NCBI GenBank assembly: GCA_021081985.1
Contig: GCA_021081985.1_3639.1
Length of the DNA: 64,000 nucleotides
Source of the DNA: a phage
Strand: one strand, 5' to 3'
Made by a program: the position numbers and the translations under genes
Shown: positions 21,129 to 43,575 of the stretch, piece after piece
How positions within the stretch are numbered: the stretch's first letter is position 1
How the letters are laid out: each line of letters begins with the position of its first letter
Notes under the pieces: generated by a model
Seen by the model: only the letters and a program-made list of their open reading frames with translations
Told to the model about the DNA's origin: nothing
Databases searched by the model: none

Positions 21129-21566
21129 TCACTGTCGCTCTAACAAATCTTCTGCTGGATAAGCATACAGCATGTATTCCCAACCACGATGGTAATGTCT
21201 GTGTTGCCAGTTGATTAATTTTAGACACACAATGTTCACCACGTTCCTGTCCCCATGGATAAAAACACAAGTCTCAAGGATTGACTTTCCAAACTCAACA
21301 TGACTGTCAAGATACAGTTTTGTGTTGTATCTTTTTTCAGCATCCAGCATGATCTGTTTCAAGGCCAGAAATGCCTCGCAACACACAGATTTTTCATCAG
21401 AAATCATTTTGATATTCAAGCATTCACCCCCACACAGGCAACCACGCAAATCGTGTCTGATCACCACAACACAATCGGTTTGAAACAAACCTGTTTGACA
21501 CACAACAGGCATCGTCGTAGTGTCATGCCTAAACACAGACAGATATGATACGACGAAGATCCCCAC
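21129..21566 (-). CDS. Cys/His-rich hypothetical protein (first gene of the minus-strand block)
   Basis: 145-aa ORF; several Cys and an HRHYH stretch. Confidence 0.3.
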   Translation of the reverse strand: MGIFVVSYLSVFRHDTTTMPVVCQTGLFQTDCVVVIRHDLRGCLCGGECLNIKMISDEKSVCCEAFLALKQIMLDAEKRYNTKLYLDSHVEFGKSILETCVFIHGDRNVVNIVCLKLINWQHRHYHRGWEYMLYAYPAEDLLERQ

Positions 21567-22122
21567 ACAGAGTCACATAGTGACTTGTGACAACCCGAAT
21601 CCATGATTGAGATAAACACACAGAGACAAACCTGTAGGGTTTGTTGATGTGGGTTTATCTCAGAATGGCTCATGAGGGTTAGATGATCACAAGCTATCAG
21701 CGCAGTGAGCATCTTACACACTCACGTATTGCCTGAAGAGTCTCATCGACTCATGCTTTCAGGCAAAACACTATGAACTCTATGATTCGAAATCATCGAA
21801 CCATACGATTCGACTCAATCGAATCATATCAACAAAAATATTTAAAATCAAGTCTTGACATTCTTCAAGACTTAATGTATTTTAAATAAATTTTATATAA
21901 TATATTATTATATATAATACGTAGTATTATATTATATTAAATTATATTATATAATTTATATTATATTAGATCATATTAAATAGATCATAGTATTATAATA
22001 CGTAGTATTATATTTAATAGATCTTATAAGTTAGTTTAATTTGATCAGTTAGTATTGTGTCCCCAAAACGGGGACATACCCATGTCCCTGAAATGGGGAC
22101 ATATGGGAGGGGTTGACATTGT
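21567..22122. promoter_or_regulatory. divergent intergenic control region (AT-rich repeats, palindromes, promoter-like boxes)
   Basis: 556 bp non-coding between opposed gene blocks; IR gagataaac..gtttatctc (about 21610-21662), IR tgcctgaa..ttcaggca (about 21731-21766), gattcga/cgaatcat repeats, IR aagtcttga..tcaagactt with TTGACA (21850-21873), AT-rich attatat repeats (21880-22050), paired GTCCC..GGGAC hairpins (22058-22102), TTGACA at 22113-22118. Confidence 0.45.
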
Positions 22123-22548
22123 GTGGGGTTATGGGTAGCATTCTCGGTGTTGGATTACACACCGGAGTTTGCCTTGAAATCTAATGTTGGGGGTTTCCAT
22201 GTAAATCCGAAAGCTGGGTCATACATCGCTGTCCCGACAGAGTGGGTTTTTGATGAACGGTTATCACCAAGCGATCTGCAAAGATTGATACGCTTGTTGT
22301 GGAGATACGAGTATTTCAAGAATCTGAACCCTCTGGGTGGGGAACTGGTATTCTTTCCGTCACAACAATCCTTGTGTGGCCTGTTGGGGTGGAATGAAAA
22401 CTCACGAACCAAAGTGTCTGAATTTCTGTCTCGGATGGAGAGCTTTGGTTATATCAGGCGTGTTAGATCAGGATTTCAGGATTCTGATGGTAACGTGAAA
22501 CCAAGAAATTATATTATCGTCAATCGTATCAGAGGGGATAAATCATGA
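22123..22548 (+). CDS. putative winged-helix DNA-binding protein (start uncertain)
   Basis: 141-aa ORF from GTG; LIRLLWRYEYF...GYIRRVR helix-rich segment; track start lies inside promoter-like sequence so a downstream TTG near 22174 may be the real start. Confidence 0.3.
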   Translation: MGLWVAFSVLDYTPEFALKSNVGGFHVNPKAGSYIAVPTEWVFDERLSPSDLQRLIRLLWRYEYFKNLNPLGGELVFFPSQQSLCGLLGWNENSRTKVSEFLSRMESFGYIRRVRSGFQDSDGNVKPRNYIIVNRIRGDKS

Positions 22549-25146: not shown

Positions 25147-25172
25147 TCCCCTCCGCACGGAGGGGTTTTTCA
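25147..25172 (+). terminator. intrinsic terminator after the NAMPT-like gene
   Basis: CCCCTCCGcacGGAGGGG followed by TTTTT. Confidence 0.55.
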
Positions 25173-25188: not shown

Positions 25189-25395
25189 TTGAGAAATTTC
25201 GTAGTCAAGCACGACAGAAACCGTGCATCAGTCCACACAGACATGAAAAAAGCGTGGGAGCCAGATATCCTTGACGGACTAGAAGAACATTACATCGAAG
25301 TCGGTCTTTGCAAGGATGCCTCATGTGACCTTTCCCCTCATGAGATTGCAGTAGCAGAATACGAACGTGGTGTCAAGGCTTCTGGAATAGTTTAA
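25189..25395 (+). CDS. hypothetical protein
   Basis: 68-aa ORF. Confidence 0.3.
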   Translation: MRNFVVKHDRNRASVHTDMKKAWEPDILDGLEEHYIEVGLCKDASCDLSPHEIAVAEYERGVKASGIV

Positions 25396-25463
25396 TTGAC
25401 AAAAATAAACACCACTGATAAGATCTAATAACAAGATAAAAATAAAGTTAGTGGTGATTTGTT

Positions 25464-25712
25464 ATGTTTAAATTAAAAATGGTTCTTAAGTCTGATAACG
25501 GGGAGTACGTAGAACATGAGTCTTTTCATAAAACACATGATGATGCGCTTGAAGAAGCGGATGATGTCGCTTTTTCTACAACTGGTTTTGGAATTGAATC
25601 CTGGAAATATATTGCATCGTTCGGTGAAGAAGGCGGGTTATATTATTTCTACCCCATCGAAGGGATTAGTACAACAAAGTACGTTATCAGGATCCTTAGA
25701 ACAACCGTATAA
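25464..25712 (+). CDS. hypothetical protein
   Basis: 82-aa ORF; promoter-like TTGACA-17-TAAGAT at 25396-25424 upstream. Confidence 0.3.
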   Translation: MFKLKMVLKSDNGEYVEHESFHKTHDDALEEADDVAFSTTGFGIESWKYIASFGEEGGLYYFYPIEGISTTKYVIRILRTTV

Positions 25713-25995
25713 AAATCGTAAACAAAGACGTGCAGAAGCTGCAATGAAAAGATCACGGAGAAAAGTAAGATGACCAAAACGTATACTGAAGAGACGCATA
25801 AACAAGTTGAGTTGTTGCTTTGTAGGTTACAACAGTGTATTGACAGAGTTCGTATTTTACGTTTTGAGTTTGAAAATAATATCTCTTAATGTGAGGAATG
25901 TATGAGAAAAGGTATTGATTTTGAAAAAGAAGTTGGTTTCGGGGAAGGGTGTCATCAAGAAGAAAATTGGGATGTTTAAAATTTTAAAATATCTC

Positions 25996-26024
25996 TTGAC
26001 AATGTAGATCATACAGGATAACAT
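25996..26024 (+). promoter_or_regulatory. sigma70-like promoter (TTGACA-17-TAACAT) upstream of first tRNA
   Basis: cTTGACAatgtagatcatacaggaTAACAT about 22 nt before the tRNA 5' end. Confidence 0.4.
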
Positions 26025-26045
26025 CATCTCATACCAAAGAGATAC

Positions 26046-26121
26046 GGCCCCTTAGCTCAGTGGTTAGAGCAGGTGACTCATAATCGCTTGGTCGCTGGTT
26101 AAAGTCCAGCAGGGGCCACCA
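26046..26121 (+). tRNA. tRNA-Met (anticodon CAT; could also be Ile2 or initiator)
   Basis: Manual cloverleaf: acceptor GGCCCCT/AGGGGCC, D-arm GCTC..GAGC, anticodon loop cTCATaa, T-arm GCTGG..CCAGC, encoded CCA. Confidence 0.75.
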
Positions 26122-26173
26122 AATGTGGCACACGAAATAAACTAGGTTTATTGTTTTCGGAGGAGAAAACTTA

Positions 26174-26497
26174 ATGGCTAAGAAACAGTCTGCTAAAAAG
26201 GTATCAGCTATCGAGGCGATCAAGCAACCTTTTCAGTTTGAATCAAAATCCACGCAGACACATTCTGCACCGCACGATGTGCGTCTTGGTGGCAAAACGC
26301 AAACTGTAGCAGTTCTGAAAAAACGCAAAGATGAAGACGGTAATACTGAAATGTATTATGAATCTGTGTCTCGTGTCATTGGTGGTGAAGTGATTTCTGC
26401 TTCCTATCGTATCCGTACTGGGAAAACAAAGCGTGAACGAGAAGTGAAACAGAAAACAAGCACTCCTGTAGGAAACGTTAAGAAAACTAAAAAATAA
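26174..26497 (+). CDS. hypothetical basic protein
   Basis: 107 aa, Lys-rich; GGAGGAG RBS. Confidence 0.35.
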   Translation: MAKKQSAKKVSAIEAIKQPFQFESKSTQTHSAPHDVRLGGKTQTVAVLKKRKDEDGNTEMYYESVSRVIGGEVISASYRIRTGKTKREREVKQKTSTPVGNVKKTKK

Positions 26498-26573
26498 TTT
26501 ACTGACGAGAGTGCCACCGTGAGCCAGCGTCATTAAACAAAGGGAATCACGGACATTCAGGAGGGTTGAGATT

Positions 26574-26765
26574 ATGATAGGATCTTTGCTTAAGATTGCA
26601 AGCGATGTAACAACAACGGCTGTTGAAGTGACTGCTGCGGTAACAACTCCGTTTGTTGATTTAGCATCAGATGCTATAGCAGCAGCAGACGAGATGATTT
26701 TGTCACCGACATCTGATCTTGTCCAAGATCTTTGTGATTCTATAAAAGATGCTGTAAAAGATTAA
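26574..26765 (+). CDS. hypothetical small acidic protein
   Basis: 63 aa; AGGAGGG RBS. Confidence 0.3.
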   Translation: MIGSLLKIASDVTTTAVEVTAAVTTPFVDLASDAIAAADEMILSPTSDLVQDLCDSIKDAVKD

Positions 26766-26773
26766 AATTTTTC

Positions 26774-26802
26774 TTGACATAGTTTTTGTTTTTCTGTATA
26801 GT
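26774..26802 (+). promoter_or_regulatory. sigma70-like promoter (TTGACA-17-TATAGT)
   Basis: TTGACAtagtttttgtttttctgTATAGT upstream of the ORF at 26839. Confidence 0.5.
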
Positions 26803-26838
26803 TACTTTATCAAAGCTAATTTACATAGGAGAGATTGA

Positions 26839-27486
26839 ATGTCTACTAAGATTTCCGTAACTCGTGCACTTGCTTCTATCTCTAAGATTGAAGATAAGAT
26901 CAATAAGCGCATTTATAACCTTGAATGTATTAAGATTGCAAAAGGAACTGAGAATAATTGTAAGATTCCTGGTTATATCGGCTCTGTTGATGATTTTAAG
27001 AAATCTGCGATCAACGACTATCAAAGTCTGCAAGACCTCTTGGCAGTTCGCGATGAACTGAAGGCAAAAATTGTCAAGTCTAATGCTGAGACAATTGTCA
27101 AAATTGGTAAGGTGTCTATGACAGTTGCTGAGGCAATCGAACGCAAACGGACGATTTGCTTTAAACAAGAGTTGTTAAACAAACTTTGTGCACAGCGTGC
27201 TTCTGCACAGCTTCTTCTGGCAAAAGAAGAAAAATCTCTGGAAGATAAACTTGAAAATGCCAGAGCGCCATATATCCAACGTGATAAAGCGCCAGATGCA
27301 GAGCAGATTAAGACTGTGGAAGCTCCCATTCGAATGATGAACACACCATCGGTTGTGGATCCTCTTGAACTGGCTTCTAAGATTCGTTCTCTTGAAGAAG
27401 AGATTGAAGATTTCTTGTCTAACGTTGATTTTGCGTTGTCTGAGTCAAACGCTAAGACAGAAATTGAGATTGAGCACTCTCTCTAA
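26839..27486 (+). CDS. hypothetical coiled-coil protein
   Basis: 215 aa; heptad-like charged stretches; AGGAGAG RBS. Confidence 0.4.
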   Translation: MSTKISVTRALASISKIEDKINKRIYNLECIKIAKGTENNCKIPGYIGSVDDFKKSAINDYQSLQDLLAVRDELKAKIVKSNAETIVKIGKVSMTVAEAIERKRTICFKQELLNKLCAQRASAQLLLAKEEKSLEDKLENARAPYIQRDKAPDAEQIKTVEAPIRMMNTPSVVDPLELASKIRSLEEEIEDFLSNVDFALSESNAKTEIEIEHSL

Positions 27487-27520
27487 AAGGCTCTGATAAT
27501 ATCATTATCGTTCCTTTGTT

Positions 27521-27733
27521 TTGAAATTTAAAACATTGCTTTTGATTAACGAAGTTTACATCATCTTGCCTCCTGGGGATTGGAGGTTAAATATTCCCCA
27601 CCATGTATCGTATATGTATGAGGATAATACAGAACATAGATGCAGCGAGGCACACGAAGATGCTTTGTTGTTTCCACTAAGTAAAAGTTCATACAATAAA
27701 GGTCAATGGTTAAATGTGAAAGATGAAACTTGA
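27521..27733 (+). CDS. hypothetical protein
   Basis: 70-aa ORF. Confidence 0.25.
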   Translation: MKFKTLLLINEVYIILPPGDWRLNIPHHVSYMYEDNTEHRCSEAHEDALLFPLSKSSYNKGQWLNVKDET

Positions 27734-27851
27734 AAGTTGACTCTTGAAAGATAAAATTTCGTTTATCATCTGAAATCCTTGACACAGGTTATGGCTCACA
27801 AGATATGGTCTGTAAAGCCTCAAGGCTGTTAATCGGAAGCAATGTCTTATT

Positions 27852-27926
27852 GCTCGTATAGCTCAACGGTAGAGCACCTGCCTTGTAAGCAGGGGGTTGC
27901 AGGTTCGAAACCTGCTGCGAGCACCA
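27852..27926 (+). tRNA. tRNA-Thr (anticodon TGT)
   Basis: Acceptor GCTCGTA/TGCGAGC, D-arm GCTC..GAGC, loop cTTGTaa, T-arm GCAGG-TTCGAAA-CCTGC, CCA encoded. Confidence 0.75.
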
Positions 27927-27928
27927 AT

Positions 27929-28025
27929 GCTGGGTAAGCCCTTTGGCAAGGGCGAGGATTTATAATCCTGAAAATAGACGGGCTAGCCGTTGAATACATA
28001 GGTGGTTCGATTCCATCACCCAGCC
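27929..28025 (+). ncRNA. atypical tRNA-like element (97 nt; intact acceptor, D- and T-arms, aberrant anticodon region)
   Basis: Acceptor GCTGGGT/ACCCAGC, D-arm GCCC..GGGC, T-arm GGTGG-TTCGATT-CCATC, but about 46 nt between D- and T-arms with two hairpins and no encoded CCA. Confidence 0.3.
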
Positions 28026-28226
28026 ACAAGTTTGTTTTATAGTGTATTAGCTTATATTATTCGATATAAATGCCTGATCAGCATTTGTTGTGAATGAGGC
28101 ATACAATGCGTGAGAAAGCTATCGGTGCGCAACGTTGATTTCAAACGTAGTCATGCTCGTAGAGCACCAACTGTGGAAGTTGGAGGGTGGTTGAGTAACC
28201 ATACACTATAAAGCATTCTTTAAAAT

Positions 28227-28311
28227 GGGCGGTGTCCCCACACAAGTCTTCTAAACTTGTACTTAAAAAGTGGGAAGGAAGTGAGAGGTTCGATTCCTCC
28301 ACCGTCTACCA
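28227..28311 (+). ncRNA. atypical tRNA-like element (T-arm, acceptor and CTTCTAA anticodon-like hairpin but no D-arm)
   Basis: GGTTCGATTCC T-loop, acceptor GGGCGGT/ACCGTCT plus ACCA, hairpin CAAGT-cttctaa-ACTTG; does not fold as a canonical cloverleaf by hand. Confidence 0.3.
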
Positions 28312-29057: not shown

Positions 29058-29133
29058 GGGAGTGTAGATCAGTTAGTAGATCGCTCGACCGATAATCGAG
29101 AGGACGTAGGGGCAGAGCCTACCACTCCCACCA
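29058..29133 (+). tRNA. tRNA-Ile-like (anticodon GAT) with non-canonical T-loop and C33; possibly degenerate
   Basis: Acceptor GGGAGTG/CACTCCC, D-arm GATC..GATC, loop ccGATaa, T-arm GTAGG-GGCAGAG-CCTAC. Confidence 0.4.
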
Positions 29134-30129: not shown

Positions 30130-30211
30130 ATGAGAGTAGCGTAACTTCACTGGGTGAAGGCTGGCCTCCAAAACCAGTGACTAAGAGGTTCGATTCCTCA
30201 CTCTCGTGCCA
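30130..30211 (+). tRNA. tRNA-like gene, possible tRNA-Trp (anticodon CCA), irregular D-region
   Basis: Acceptor ATGAGAG/CTCTCGT, loop cTCCAaa, T-loop TTCGATT, CCA encoded; D-region forms a tight 6-bp hairpin instead of a normal D-arm. Confidence 0.35.
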
Positions 30212-30401: not shown

Positions 30402-31145
30402 ATGTATGCACTCTCCCCAAGAAAAAAAAATGGAAAACAGATATTTAATTTGTTGAAAAGCGGAAAAGGCTTCTCAAACCCGCTTCAATCAGGTCTTTCT
30501 CTGGTTGGTGGTAAAGTAAGTAGTCTATCTTCTTTATCTTCCTCTATTTCTTCGGTAACTAACCCAGCTATAAAGGCTCAATTAGCTGCCGCAGGTTTGA
30601 CAACTGGCGTTTTATCAAATTTTACTTCGTCTCTTGGTTCTGTTACAAGCACGACAAAAACGCTTGTTGATTATGGTCAGAAATCTGTTGAAGAGTTCTC
30701 CCAAAGAATGCACGCAGCGAGTAATTATATGAGTACTCTGAGCAGAATGGGAGAAAAGACAAGTTGTTCAATATTTAGTGACGTTATGTCTGTAGCCACT
30801 GATTTAGGTAAGAAAGCTATGGATGCCGTTAATTCCGCGATGGATGCGGTGAACGATGTTATGTCTCAATTGCAAGATGCAATAAATAAGGGTTTGAATA
30901 CAATATCTAGTTTGGCGAGTAAAGCTGTCTCAGCGATAAACAAAGGGATCCAGAAAATGTCTGAGTATGCTAGCCAAGTGACAAAGATGATTGAAGATGA
31001 AGCAAAGAAGTTGGCAGACTACTTAAAGACAAGTGCTGAAGGATTTCTCGCAGATATCCTACCTGATTGGTTTAACGATTCTTGTAAATCTGGTATAGTT
31101 GACCAGATTGCTACACCAGAGATGAAAGAAGTTCTTAAAAAGTAA
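30402..31145 (+). CDS. hypothetical Ser/Thr-rich helical protein embedded in tRNA array
   Basis: 247-aa ORF between tRNA genes; start may be internal. Confidence 0.4.
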   Translation: MYALSPRKKNGKQIFNLLKSGKGFSNPLQSGLSLVGGKVSSLSSLSSSISSVTNPAIKAQLAAAGLTTGVLSNFTSSLGSVTSTTKTLVDYGQKSVEEFSQRMHAASNYMSTLSRMGEKTSCSIFSDVMSVATDLGKKAMDAVNSAMDAVNDVMSQLQDAINKGLNTISSLASKAVSAINKGIQKMSEYASQVTKMIEDEAKKLADYLKTSAEGFLADILPDWFNDSCKSGIVDQIATPEMKEVLKK

Positions 31146-32627: not shown

Positions 32628-32703
32628 TGCGAGTTTGAAGTCTGGTGACTTCGCTGGTCTCATAAGCCAGTCCAGATTGGTTCGATCCCAATACTCGCAA
32701 CCA
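32628..32703 (+). tRNA. tRNA-Met/Ile2 (anticodon CAT), second CAT tRNA
   Basis: Acceptor TGCGAGT/ACTCGCA, D-arm GAAG..CTTC, loop cTCATaa, T-arm ATTGG-TTCGATC-CCAAT, CCA. Confidence 0.65.
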
Positions 32704-42430: not shown

Positions 42431-43444
42431 ATGGCAGCAGTACAGACTAACGACTTTCAAATCGTAAACCTTGGCGCAGCACTGGAACTTGTTCCACGTC
42501 AGTATCGCCTGATTACCAACATGGATCTGTTCACCGCTTACCATGGTGAAACCACAATTGCTCGTGTTGAGCGTGTTGACGAAATTGTTGCGGATATTCC
42601 TGCACGTCGTCGTGGTGGAGAACGTAACTATGTGGGTAGTGAAAAAGCTCAAATCAAGAACTTCAACATTCCGTTCTTCCCTCTGGATCGTCAGATCACT
42701 GCGGCAGATGTTCAGAACTTCCGTAAATATTTCACTACGGACGCTCCGAGAACTGTTGAAGACGTAGTTGCTCGCGTAGTTAAGCGTATTCGCGTTTCTC
42801 ATGAACAACTGAAAGAAAAAGCAATGGTTCAGGCAATCATGGGTAAATCATGGTCTCCACAAGATCCGACCGCACAGTACAACTACTTTACCGAGTGGGG
42901 AGTTACCCAGCATACTGCCAATATCGACTTCACAGATGTCGCTGTTGACCCGTCTGATCTGATTGAAAAAGACGCTCGTGCATACATCATCGACAATGCA
43001 GGTGATAACGGCAATAACTACAATATCATTGTTCTGGCTTCTCGTAAATGGTTCTCTGCTCTGATCGCCCATCCGCTGATCATGAATGCATACCAGTATT
43101 ATTCTTCTACCCAAGAGCCGCTGCGTCGTCGTCTGGGTATGGGTTCTGAGAATGCCAACAACCGTATGTTTGTTCATAAGAACGTAACCTACATTGAAGA
43201 CATCTCTGGATATATCCCAGATGGTGAAGCATACATCCTGCCGCAAGGTATTGATGATATGTTCCAGATCCACTATGCTCCGGCAGATGATGTTCGTGAA
43301 GCAAACACTGTAGCTGAAGAACTGTATCTGTGGTACAAATCTTCTGCATATCTGCGTGAAGAGAAAGTTGAATCTGAAACTTCCTTCTTGACGGTTAACA
43401 CCCGTCCTGAACTGGTTGTGCGTTCTACTGGTACTTTCGCATAA
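42431..43444 (+). CDS. major capsid protein (lambda gpE-like)
   Basis: 337 aa, strong RBS AAGGAGA, codon usage biased toward highly-expressed codons (CGT, CTG, GGT), followed by strong terminator. Confidence 0.7.
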   Translation: MAAVQTNDFQIVNLGAALELVPRQYRLITNMDLFTAYHGETTIARVERVDEIVADIPARRRGGERNYVGSEKAQIKNFNIPFFPLDRQITAADVQNFRKYFTTDAPRTVEDVVARVVKRIRVSHEQLKEKAMVQAIMGKSWSPQDPTAQYNYFTEWGVTQHTANIDFTDVAVDPSDLIEKDARAYIIDNAGDNGNNYNIIVLASRKWFSALIAHPLIMNAYQYYSSTQEPLRRRLGMGSENANNRMFVHKNVTYIEDISGYIPDGEAYILPQGIDDMFQIHYAPADDVREANTVAEELYLWYKSSAYLREEKVESETSFLTVNTRPELVVRSTGTFA

Positions 43445-43470
43445 GATAGCTTAAATGCTACCTCTAATGA

Positions 43471-43500
43471 GGGGAGGTGAATTATCACCTCCCCTTTTTT
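43471..43500 (+). terminator. intrinsic terminator after major capsid gene
   Basis: GGGGAGGTGaattaTCACCTCCCC followed by TTTTTT. Confidence 0.6.
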
Positions 43501-43575
43501 CACATTCTGACCTTAATAATAGCCACTTATCCTGTGTTGTCAAGTGGTTTTTACTAAGGAATAAAAGGAGATTTT

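Follow-up and report, generated by a model that had tools for sequence, protein, structure and literature searches.

Positions 25,189–27,733 of the 64,000-nucleotide (nt) stretch of phage DNA analysed here (GenBank assembly GCA_021081985.1, contig GCA_021081985.1_3639.1; the whole stretch is referred to as the window) hold a series of short open reading frames (ORFs), termed A to F, between a gene for nicotinamide phosphoribosyltransferase (NAMPT) and an array of tRNA genes. Comparison with related phages lets us regard this series with confidence as the conserved, promoter-proximal head of the tRNA region of the Vequintavirinae and not as a separate accessory island. Its anatomy is likewise secure: it consists of genes A–F, a tRNA-Ile2 gene, a short arginine-rich ORF in the +1 frame and, directly behind gene F, a structured RNA of ~365 nt that contains a pseudoknot. 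RNAs of this type recur behind homologues of F in diverse phages, and the overall explanation that we consider best, and put forward tentatively, combines this anatomy with early expression and with a module of F and its downstream RNA that would serve the neighbouring tRNA cluster.

The head of the tRNA region

Over its full length (2.75 kb), the stretch has 96–97% identity with Escherichia phage Av-05 (Avunavirus, Vequintavirinae) and with phages TH18, 18-1-2, 19-1-2 and 24-2-1, and by this similarity the window is assigned to an Avunavirus-like phage of the Vequintavirinae, i.e. an rV5-like E. coli phage. The records of these phages annotate 5–7 hypothetical proteins here, located 3' of the genes for ribose-phosphate pyrophosphokinase and NAMPT. 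The sign of the GC skew changes at ~22,000 of the window, which places the stretch ~3 kb into a long rightward block that starts at a divergent junction.

The sister phages Mydo, GAP31, 4MG, EC152, Hena1 and pEp_SNUABM_01 show the same gene order as the window, with some extra elements: NAMPT, A, B, small ORFs, a tRNA with the anticodon CAU, D, tRNA-Lys, E, a membrane ORF, a 203-amino acid (aa) ORF, F, a spacer and tRNA-Thr. Within this order, A, B, D, E and F are found in unchanged order and orientation in four Vequintavirinae genera, which, along with the presence of the F family in 738 phage records, speaks against the term 'accessory locus' that a first-pass annotation had used; by this comparison, the five genes are core-like and not variable cargo. 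The tRNA-Lys, the small membrane ORF and the 203-aa ORF found between D and F in the sister genera are missing from the window and, judged from the same comparison, were lost in this phage. The intergenic stretch between D and E (26,498–26,573), which is the place of tRNA-Lys in the sister genera, is also the most variable part of the island (15 of 76 positions differ from Av-05) and may be a scar of this loss. A relationship of the 203-aa ORF, which lies 5' of F in the sister genera, to F as a paralogue was considered and rejected (hhalign probability 1%).

The boundaries drawn in the first-pass annotation hold on one side only. Behind the NAMPT gene there is indeed an intrinsic-terminator-like hairpin with a T-run (25,148–25,165, + strand; a 7-bp stem with six G-C pairs, followed by TTTTTCATTC). 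The stretch does not, however, lie upstream of the tRNA genes, since the tRNA with the anticodon CAU (26,046–26,121, +) is located inside it. This location and the interleaved tRNAs of the sister genera make the 'island' the head of the tRNA region itself. ARAGORN calls this gene tRNA-Met, and Rfam scores it with 66.8 bits. Its sequence, however, is ~95% identical over 82 nt to E. coli loci annotated as tRNA-Ile, with a match in all 5,426 complete genomes, and is annotated as ileZ or tRNA-Ile in Stx phages. It is thus predicted to be an ileX-type tRNA-Ile2, which would decode AUA after lysidine modification, and not a tRNA-Met. AUA accounts for 26% of the isoleucine codons in the long ORFs of the window, and the CAU tRNA would supply AUA decoding for an AUA-rich phage.

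Gene F, a pseudoknotted RNA and the neighbouring tRNA genes

Between F and the next member of the array, tRNA-Thr(UGU) (27,852–27,926, +; found by ARAGORN and Rfam), lies a spacer of 365 nt (27,487–27,851, +), whose minimum free energy is −97.4 kcal/mol as compared with −77.0 ± 4.3 in shuffled sequences (z = −4.78). A candidate 'ORF G' in this spacer (70 aa, TTG start, 27,521–27,733, +) has neither a Shine–Dalgarno sequence nor a PHROG match, its frame is broken by indels and it was rejected as a gene. Across genera, the spacer is conserved as non-coding blocks separated by such frame-breaking indels, and therefore this region is to be read as an RNA and not as ORF G.

The first conserved block (27,568–27,600, +) can fold into two crossing helices, with stem 1 formed by GCCUCC (27,568–27,573) and GGAGGU (27,582–27,587) and stem 2 by UGGGGA (27,574–27,579) and UCCCCA (27,595–27,600). 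In an alignment of 10 sequences, 90% of the cells pair, five pairs have changed on both sides and one pair of stem 2 is A-U in five sequences and G-C in the other five; when the partners are slid by 1–3 columns as a control, only 27–56% of the cells pair. The covariation score of 0.357, as against 0.189 in shuffles, was reached by none of 500 shuffled alignments. The element is thus predicted with confidence to be an H-type pseudoknot, the two helices of which are kept by compensatory substitutions. A covariance model built on it finds exactly one copy in the window and further copies directly behind the F homologue, namely in every member of the Vequintavirinae tested, in loci L054 and L055 of two unrelated metagenomic phages and in a third locus, L028 (E = 4.5e-8), where the stems are CCCCU/GGGGG and UUAGCCAC/GUGGCUAA. 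In T5-like phages its matches are weak and consistent in position, and the pseudoknot found there (AUCUUA-CCUCG-cagc-AGCGGU-ugaaaua-CGAGG-UUAAAU-aag-ACCGCU) has kept both stems through compensatory changes. A second conserved block, GGCUCACAAGAUAUGG...GCCUCAAGGCUGUUAAUCGG (27,793–27,839, +), is located just upstream of tRNA-Thr and occurs in all Vequintavirinae genera and in the T5-like phage SP15 (locus L003, 4951–4992).

Known RNA families do not account for these elements: with Rfam covariance models, the window and the T5-like spacers gave only snoRNA and miRNA matches at chance level (E ≤ 10). An identity as a pistol ribozyme or a preQ1-like pseudoknot, considered on account of the GGUUAAA linker, is unsupported by these models. 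A conserved 'AAGATAT' block upstream of tRNA-Thr was rejected as a promoter −10 element, since it has no conserved −35 element at the right spacing. In T5 itself (NC_005859), the 440-nt gap behind T5.085 (43,063–43,504) is unannotated except for a promoter; its counterpart in SP15 is the spacer of locus L003, in which the conserved pseudoknot and the second block are both found.

How widely this RNA accompanies F was assessed in 80 IMG/VR loci with an F homologue, from which 45 non-redundant loci were scanned over the 150 nt behind the F stop codon. As MAFFT loses the register of the most divergent pseudoknots, a detector for perfect stems of 4–6 and 5–8 bp with short loops was used instead, with a score cut-off of at least 28 and with shuffled and natural sequences as controls. 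Pseudoknots above this cut-off follow F in 26 of the 45 loci (58%) as against 1.9% of 1,125 shuffles; the reverse complement yields 24%, and natural control segments of the same loci yield 2% when taken from within F, 13% when taken from the region upstream of it and 5% at both 1.5 kb upstream and 2.3 kb downstream. Between lineages the stems are wholly different in sequence and the architecture is constant, i.e. the pseudoknot starts 40–100 nt behind the stop codon, has hardly any loop where stem 2 meets the returning strand of stem 1 as well as an A-rich third loop, and is usually preceded by ACUUAC or ACUAG. According to ARAGORN, tRNA genes are found within 3 kb of F at 25 of the 45 diverse loci, invariably on the same strand as F; in 17 loci the first downstream tRNA lies 318–616 nt behind the F stop codon, and in the window this distance is 366 nt.

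An important question is whether the pseudoknot has anything to do with the F protein at all. It could be purely cis-acting, i.e. the spacer could be a protective or processing structure at the 3' end that separates the F mRNA from the tRNA precursor, with no partnership with F. Stable 3' RNA structures commonly block exonucleases, and such a role would fit a pseudoknot that always lies 40–100 nt behind the F stop codon, on the same strand and often ahead of tRNAs, and also the hairpin that directly follows the F stop codon in all genera. Yet the pseudoknot travels with F-family genes in the loci examined and is present only once in the window, and its flanking motifs CUUAC, CGAAAAC and GGUUAAA are conserved between distant lineages, which suggests a specific recognition partner rather than mere thermodynamic stability. 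Moreover, the next features behind the element in T5-like phages are a promoter and a protein gene instead of a tRNA. We therefore consider a purely cis-acting role possible but rather doubtful, and prefer the reading in which the RNA has a partner, for which F would be the candidate. The hairpin itself (27,495–27,509 in the window, with equivalents in loci L020–L027) has covarying stems in every genus, GAUAAU/AUUAUC in the window and GGAAUU/AAUUCC or GGAAUC/GAUUCC elsewhere; a role as a processing site or as an attenuating terminator upstream of the pseudoknot is possible.

F (215 aa; 26,839–27,486, +) belongs to phrog_1491 (5e-76), a family labelled 'tail fiber protein', and is a homologue of T5.085. 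The family has 558 matches in a collection clustered at 90% identity and, across its 738 phage records, includes T5-like phages, Vequintavirinae, phages of Vibrio, Pseudomonas, Bacillus and Lactococcus, and jumbo Erwinia phages; a profile search returned 3,247 representatives of 50%-identity clusters, the best 150 of which are 202–217 aa long. Three motifs are near-invariant: VTRALA close to the N-terminus, a central SNA-T-V-IG...MTVAEAIE-K and a C-terminal VDFALSESNAKTEIEV. In an AlphaFold (AF2) model with a predicted local distance difference test score (pLDDT) of 89, F is a bundle of long helices with four short strands that coincide with the three motifs; the invariant residues T8, R9, S81, N82, D197, S201, E202, N204 and T207 lie in these motifs and thus in the only β-strands of the model. 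The best structural match is DIP1984, and by this model F probably shares the fold of the DIP1984/septicolysin-like family. Sequence profiles do not connect the two families: F gave no Pfam or NCBIfam match beyond noise at E ≤ 1, and sequence and profile searches of the PDB miss 3kdq. F differs from DIP1984 of Corynebacterium diphtheriae (PDB 3KDQ), to which it is 14–18% identical, in being ~60 residues longer and in being a phage protein with strongly conserved motifs of its own.

That F is a tail fibre protein, as RefSeq and PHROGs have it, is very improbable. In favour of this assignment there is the label of phrog_1491, which is repeated in many GenBank records. The gene, however, is located in an early, tRNA-adjacent region away from the structural modules in both Vequintavirinae and T5, where T5.085 lies between annotated early promoters and near tRNA-Arg; the predicted fold, a helical hairpin bundle of 215 aa, is akin to that of a bacterial cytoplasmic protein, with no fibre proteins among the structural matches; and the family is of uniform length in phages with very different tails. 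Genomic position and predicted fold thus contradict the label. The literature searched on DIP1984 and septicolysin, on phrog_1491, on the stable RNAs and transcriptome of T5 and on T5.085 (in a CRISPRi-ART paper) holds no functional information.

The small genes, a hidden reading frame and their promoter-like sites

The first-pass annotation had counted six or more short ORFs, each with a ribosome-binding site. On our data, six small genes, A to F (68, 82, 39, 107, 63 and 215 aa), are to be taken as genuine; all of the proposed ORFs are present on the + strand where they had been placed, and Shine–Dalgarno sequences precede A (AGGAG), B (GGTGA), C (GGAG), D (GGAGGAG), E (AGGAGGG) and F (AGGAG) at normal spacing, whereas ORF G has none. 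The description of the products by their charge also stands, with isoelectric points (pI) of 10.2 for D, 4.9 for B and 4.1 for E and a helical F. Relative to phages with 96% identity, substitutions in A, B, D, E and F are biased towards third codon positions (pooled counts 10/4/39), all five match PHROG families (E between 4e-29 and 5e-76), and homologues with 44–75% protein identity are found in Seunavirus, Mydovirus and/or Henunavirus, with the exception of F in Henunavirus (43%). Conservation among relatives thus holds for these five; tblastn found no homologue of C or G outside Avunavirus.

ORF A (68 aa, TTG start; 25,189–25,395, +; phrog_5724) is 45–67% conserved in Seunavirus, Mydovirus and Henunavirus, and its N-terminal ~22–39 aa form a motif that is common to T5.088-type proteins (a phrog_4586 member against phrog_5724, 2.3e-10); a match to DUF7230 and tblastn matches in rV5-like and some Campylobacter-labelled records (~33%) are weak. 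For ORF C (39 aa; 25,770–25,889, +), the match to phrog_12503 is weak as well; a 39-aa ORF of equal position and length occurs in other genera, and by eye C resembles the Henunavirus ORF behind B. ORF D (107 aa; 26,174–26,497, +; phrog_6662) has a β-rich core with the invariant motifs PFQFESKSTQTHS and RIRTGKT and a lysine-rich C-terminus, and residues 9–89 of this core are ~53% identical to gp93 of phage phiEco32. ORF E (63 aa; 26,574–26,765, +; phrog_9123) is rich in Ala, Val and Thr; the small acidic proteins B and E have no informative match. Pfam (with nothing above its cut-off), NCBIfam and PADLOC scans of all seven ORFs yielded nothing usable, and PDB sequence and profile searches found no relatives of F and D. 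A 30-aa ORF at 25,915–26,007 is probably non-coding, as its changes fall mostly on second positions and it overlaps a promoter-like site.

ORF B (82 aa; 25,464–25,712, +; phrog_5676) is the most DNA-conserved gene of the island. At synonymous positions, the fraction of identical codons is 0.54–0.67 as compared with 0.36–0.48 in NAMPT, A, D and F. Because phrog_38874 matches both ORF B (residues 1–59) and an ORF in the +1 frame that overlaps it, the frames were compared across genera. Over B, the +1 frame is open for 83–103 codons in every genus and the +2 frame has 10–14 stops; in the window the maximal +1 ORF comprises 85 aa (25,516–25,773, +), of which only the 3' part is demonstrably under coding selection. 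Openness alone is not significant, since codon-preserving shuffles of B predict 3–3.8 stops in the +1 frame and 0–2 are observed (P between 0.02 and 0.2). With this marginal test and a +1 peptide that is poorly conserved inside B, the long ORF was dropped as an independent overlapping gene.

Its last part, 3' of the stop codon of B (25,711–25,773, +), is different. Here the +1 frame encodes KNRKQRRAEAAMKRSRRKVR and then a TGA that overlaps the ATG of ORF C (ATGA), and this protein sequence, KNRKQRRAEAA[M/I/V]x RS[R/K]RK..R with a stop after 20–22 codons, is kept in Avunavirus, Seunavirus, Mydovirus and Henunavirus (Hena1). Over KNRKQRRAEAA, the changes between genera fall on third positions of the +1 frame or switch between the arginine codons AGA and CGC or CGT, i.e. 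they are synonymous; amino acid changes are confined to the C-terminal half. Every phage of the four genera that keeps this tail also keeps the ATGA overlap. Enterobacter phage FENT2 has an in-frame insertion of 42 nt and, as a start, an ATG located 29 nt within B, and its record carries a coding sequence (CDS) of 46 aa; in 4MG, a CDS of 37 aa is annotated over the tail. By its pattern of change, to which the raised synonymous conservation of B adds, the tail is thus a short arginine-rich coding segment that is hidden in the +1 frame and predicted to be translationally coupled to ORF C. The peptide is restricted to 69 Vequintavirinae records. Its RKQRRAEAA segment bears some likeness to the arginine-rich RNA-binding motif RRERRAEKQA of the lambda N type, a likeness that no homology search supports.

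As to a start codon for the tail, the codon that reads ATG in FENT2, Hena1 and pEp reads ACG in the window (25,681–25,683), in Seunavirus and in Mydovirus, and other in-frame starts vary by genus; the nearest canonical starts in the window are located upstream at 25,561/25,564 and downstream at 25,744, with none between them. The sequence would permit a +1 slip on CCC-N in the invariant TAT TTC TAC CCC (YFYP) codons, with no rare or stop codon behind it to cause a pause; such a slip on TAC-CCC-N is conceivable as a route into the tail and is speculation on our part. The tail might instead be untranslated, its conservation reflecting an RNA or DNA element such as the ribosome-binding region of ORF C. 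The missing nearby start codon would fit this, as would a small palindrome, TGCAGAAGCTGCA, inside the tail and the sparse record of the frame in databases: a search with the 85-aa ORF in a collection of 5.8 billion proteins found one near-identical protein, gene callers rarely call the ORF, and in a few phage records a short, overlapping CDS is given in its place. A non-coding element, however, would hardly explain codon changes that leave the amino acids of KNRKQRRAEAA untouched, an insertion in FENT2 that is a multiple of three and keeps the frame, or a stop codon that always overlaps the next ATG, and we regard this alternative as improbable.

Several of the ORFs had been described as having promoter elements of their own, and three exact sites are indeed found by a consensus scan, all on the + strand: TTGACA-17-TAAGAT upstream of ORF B (25,396–25,424), where the surrounding intergenic stretch shows 0–1 changes relative to Av-05 and TH18; TTGACA-17-TAACAT 21 nt upstream of the CAU tRNA (25,996–26,024); and TTGACA-17-TATAGT, which matches 11 of 12 consensus positions, upstream of F (26,774–26,802). 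The entire window contains 10 perfect TTGACA-N17-TAnnnT sites as against 1.42 expected, a number that none of 100 shuffles reaches, and seven of the 10 are clustered on the + strand between 21,495 and 28,530. Since the small genes are preceded by promoter-like sites of the sigma-70 type, they may plausibly be expressed early, and in T5 the homologues of F and A, i.e. T5.085 and the T5.088-type protein, are found among annotated early promoters. Thus, the unit is probably transcribed by the host's sigma-70 RNA polymerase from several strong promoter-like sites and hence early; these transcripts would run on into the tRNA array. Three further perfect sites on the + strand lie at 21,495–22,141, where GC skew and gene orientation switch; this place probably represents the divergent region with the early promoters of the rightward unit.

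Some observations concern the array and the annotation of the region. Rfam reports additional tRNA or tRNA-Sec matches (29.6–53.4 bits) without an ARAGORN call at 27,929–28,025, 28,226–28,308, 29,058–29,130, 30,134–30,205 and 32,629–32,698; the array may thus hold further tRNAs, or degenerate or intron-containing ones, and the match at 29,058–29,130 (53 bits) looks like a real tRNA. In Henunavirus (loci L026/L082; pEp_SNUABM_01, 81,175–81,282), a 108-nt suppressor tRNA, 'tRNA-TERM / tRNA-sup(tca)', is annotated right behind tRNA-Thr, at a distance of about 100 nt in L026/L082, and at the corresponding place the window has the tRNA-like match at 27,929–28,025 (33 bits). A 247-aa ORF inside the array (30,402–31,145; phrog_2114), with weak similarity to tape-measure-like coiled-coil regions, is missing from Av-05 and TH18 (733 gap columns) and is an insertion specific to the phage of the window. 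Homologues of ORF B carry the wrong labels 'RIIB lysis inhibitor', 'thymidylate kinase', 'HNH endonuclease' and 'DNA polymerase' (e.g. OY757067, OY978784, OY979426 and OY978796), and tiny ORFs of this region in pEp_SNUABM_01 are labelled 'terminase large subunit' and 'major capsid protein', which are evident annotation errors.

A proposed module for phage tRNAs and its known relatives

Overall, the interleaved tRNAs, the structured RNA behind F, the very basic protein D and the arginine-rich tail make RNA- or translation-related roles more likely for this stretch, and its context suggests such roles rather than anti-defence. In the picture that we tentatively favour, F and the pseudoknotted RNA from the region directly behind its gene would form a protein–RNA module for the neighbouring tRNA cluster. 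The module could help to mature, stabilize or protect the precursors of phage tRNAs, or could act likewise on translation, and RNA binding would also be contributed by protein D and the arginine-rich tail peptide. That F and the RNA share a mechanism is a guess from their conserved neighbourhood. Beyond the single phage, the phrog_1491 family (~210 aa, mislabelled) and the pseudoknot RNA 40–100 nt downstream might constitute a widespread and hitherto undescribed ribonucleoprotein or RNA-handling module, found on tRNA clusters in Demerecviridae, Vequintavirinae and many uncultured phages and acting on tRNA or translation, with a hidden arginine-rich RNA-binding peptide in addition in the Vequintavirinae; in this full form, the proposal is a bold one that could well be wrong.

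A number of observations pull in the other direction. The functional part of this picture is drawn from neighbourhood, conservation and fold; F and the pseudoknot are linked by position only, with ~40% of the diverse F loci lacking a detected pseudoknot and 44% lacking a tRNA within 3 kb. DIP1984 itself is without known function, and the fold match of F therefore provides no mechanism. For D, the structural model is β-rich, of moderate confidence (pLDDT 71) and without a structural neighbour. Finally, the promoter-like sites are consensus matches and as such no evidence of use, and for the tail the openness of the +1 frame and the position of its start codons have been dealt with above.

A different kind of explanation, close to the first-pass annotation's proposal of host-takeover or anti-defence proteins, would take the stretch as an accessory early locus, whose small products inhibit host functions or bacterial defence independently of the tRNAs. 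Small acidic (B, E) and basic (D) proteins behind strong sigma-70-like promoters are typical of early host-takeover genes, and the homologue of D sits in the early small-gene block of phiEco32. Also, gene content between D and F varies by genus, as seen in the elements absent from the window, and ORF C and the content of the G region are lineage-specific. However, the island proteins show no match to known defence or anti-defence families in Pfam, NCBIfam and PADLOC, the only hit to such profiles being the non-significant PADLOC match of D to Cmr5 (E = 0.0011, 17 bits), so that the proposal is without direct support; A, B, D, E and F form a syntenic, core-like set in four genera rather than variable cargo; and F is kept at constant length across many phage families, tied to the RNA element and tRNAs. 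We thus consider this explanation unlikely, though not negligible for individual small proteins, and retain a function around the tRNA cluster as the preferred one. Phage tRNA regions can counter tRNA-targeting defences (PMC11464382), and an indirect link of the stretch to defence is therefore conceivable.

Part of this is already known, since the genes are in the databases as hypothetical proteins and the stretch is one of ordinary small early genes in a phage tRNA region. Relative to the databases and the literature searched, with subscription literature outside this search, the pseudoknotted RNA and its tight link to phrog_1491 are new, and so are the probable DIP1984-like rather than tail fibre nature of this family, according to the structural model, and an apparently translated arginine-rich tail in the +1 frame. 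Large virulent phages used for therapy and biocontrol, such as rV5-like and T5-like ones, have tRNA arrays that are surrounded by many conserved genes without a known function, and a protein family that comes with a folded RNA and tRNA genes hints at phages managing their own tRNAs or translation, a capacity now linked to escape from tRNA-cleaving defences (PMC11464382). If the functional guesses fail, an ordinary block of conserved hypothetical early genes is left. The annotation can be corrected in that the 'Met' tRNA becomes an AUA-decoding tRNA-Ile2, 'ORF' G becomes an RNA, and one short coding region missed by standard gene callers is added.

Among known systems, the classical H-type pseudoknots, i.e. 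the ToxI type III antitoxin, the preQ1-I riboswitch and recoding pseudoknots, resemble the element described here in that a hairpin loop pairs with sequence 3' of the stem and that the third loop is short and A-rich. It differs from ToxI repeats in being neither tandemly repeated nor located upstream of a toxin gene, from recoding pseudoknots in its position 40–100 nt past the stop codon, which is too far for recoding of F, from ligand-dependent preQ1 pseudoknots in its long stem 2 (6–8 bp), and from all of these in that no Rfam model matches it. Stable RNAs of unknown function have also been found in phage tRNA clusters, such as the species 1 and 2 RNAs of T4. Another is rnaX of T5 (NC_005859, 40,848–41,566), likewise a structured non-tRNA RNA of unknown function that is co-oriented with a phage tRNA cluster; it lies at another locus, whereas the element discussed here, which is unannotated in T5, is a defined pseudoknot at a fixed position behind one protein family.

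For the arginine-rich tail, lambda Rz/Rz1 provides an example of small overlapping or embedded phage genes with translational coupling. Use of a second frame within or across the end of a gene is common to both, and the overlap of the tail's stop codon with the next start codon (ATGA) is that of small, translationally coupled phage genes; the overlapping ORF here, however, encodes an arginine-rich peptide, and the position and codon of its start vary between genera. For ORF D, gp93 of the Kuravirus podophage phiEco32 is a homologue of the core in an early small-gene block, with the differences that gp93 has 77 aa, is not flanked by tRNAs and is also of unknown function.

Closest to the stretch as a whole is the early region T5.085–T5.088 of T5. 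T5 is a siphovirus of the Demerecviridae with another gene order, in which the RNA element is not directly followed by a tRNA and no counterparts of B, D, E and the +1 tail were detected. In T5.085, however, it has a full-length homologue of F (~41% identical in T5-like records) and in the T5.088-type protein the N-terminal domain of ORF A, these two genes are preceded by early promoters of the sigma-70 type and located close to tRNA genes, and T5-like phages share both the pseudoknot and the conserved 3' block behind the F homologue.

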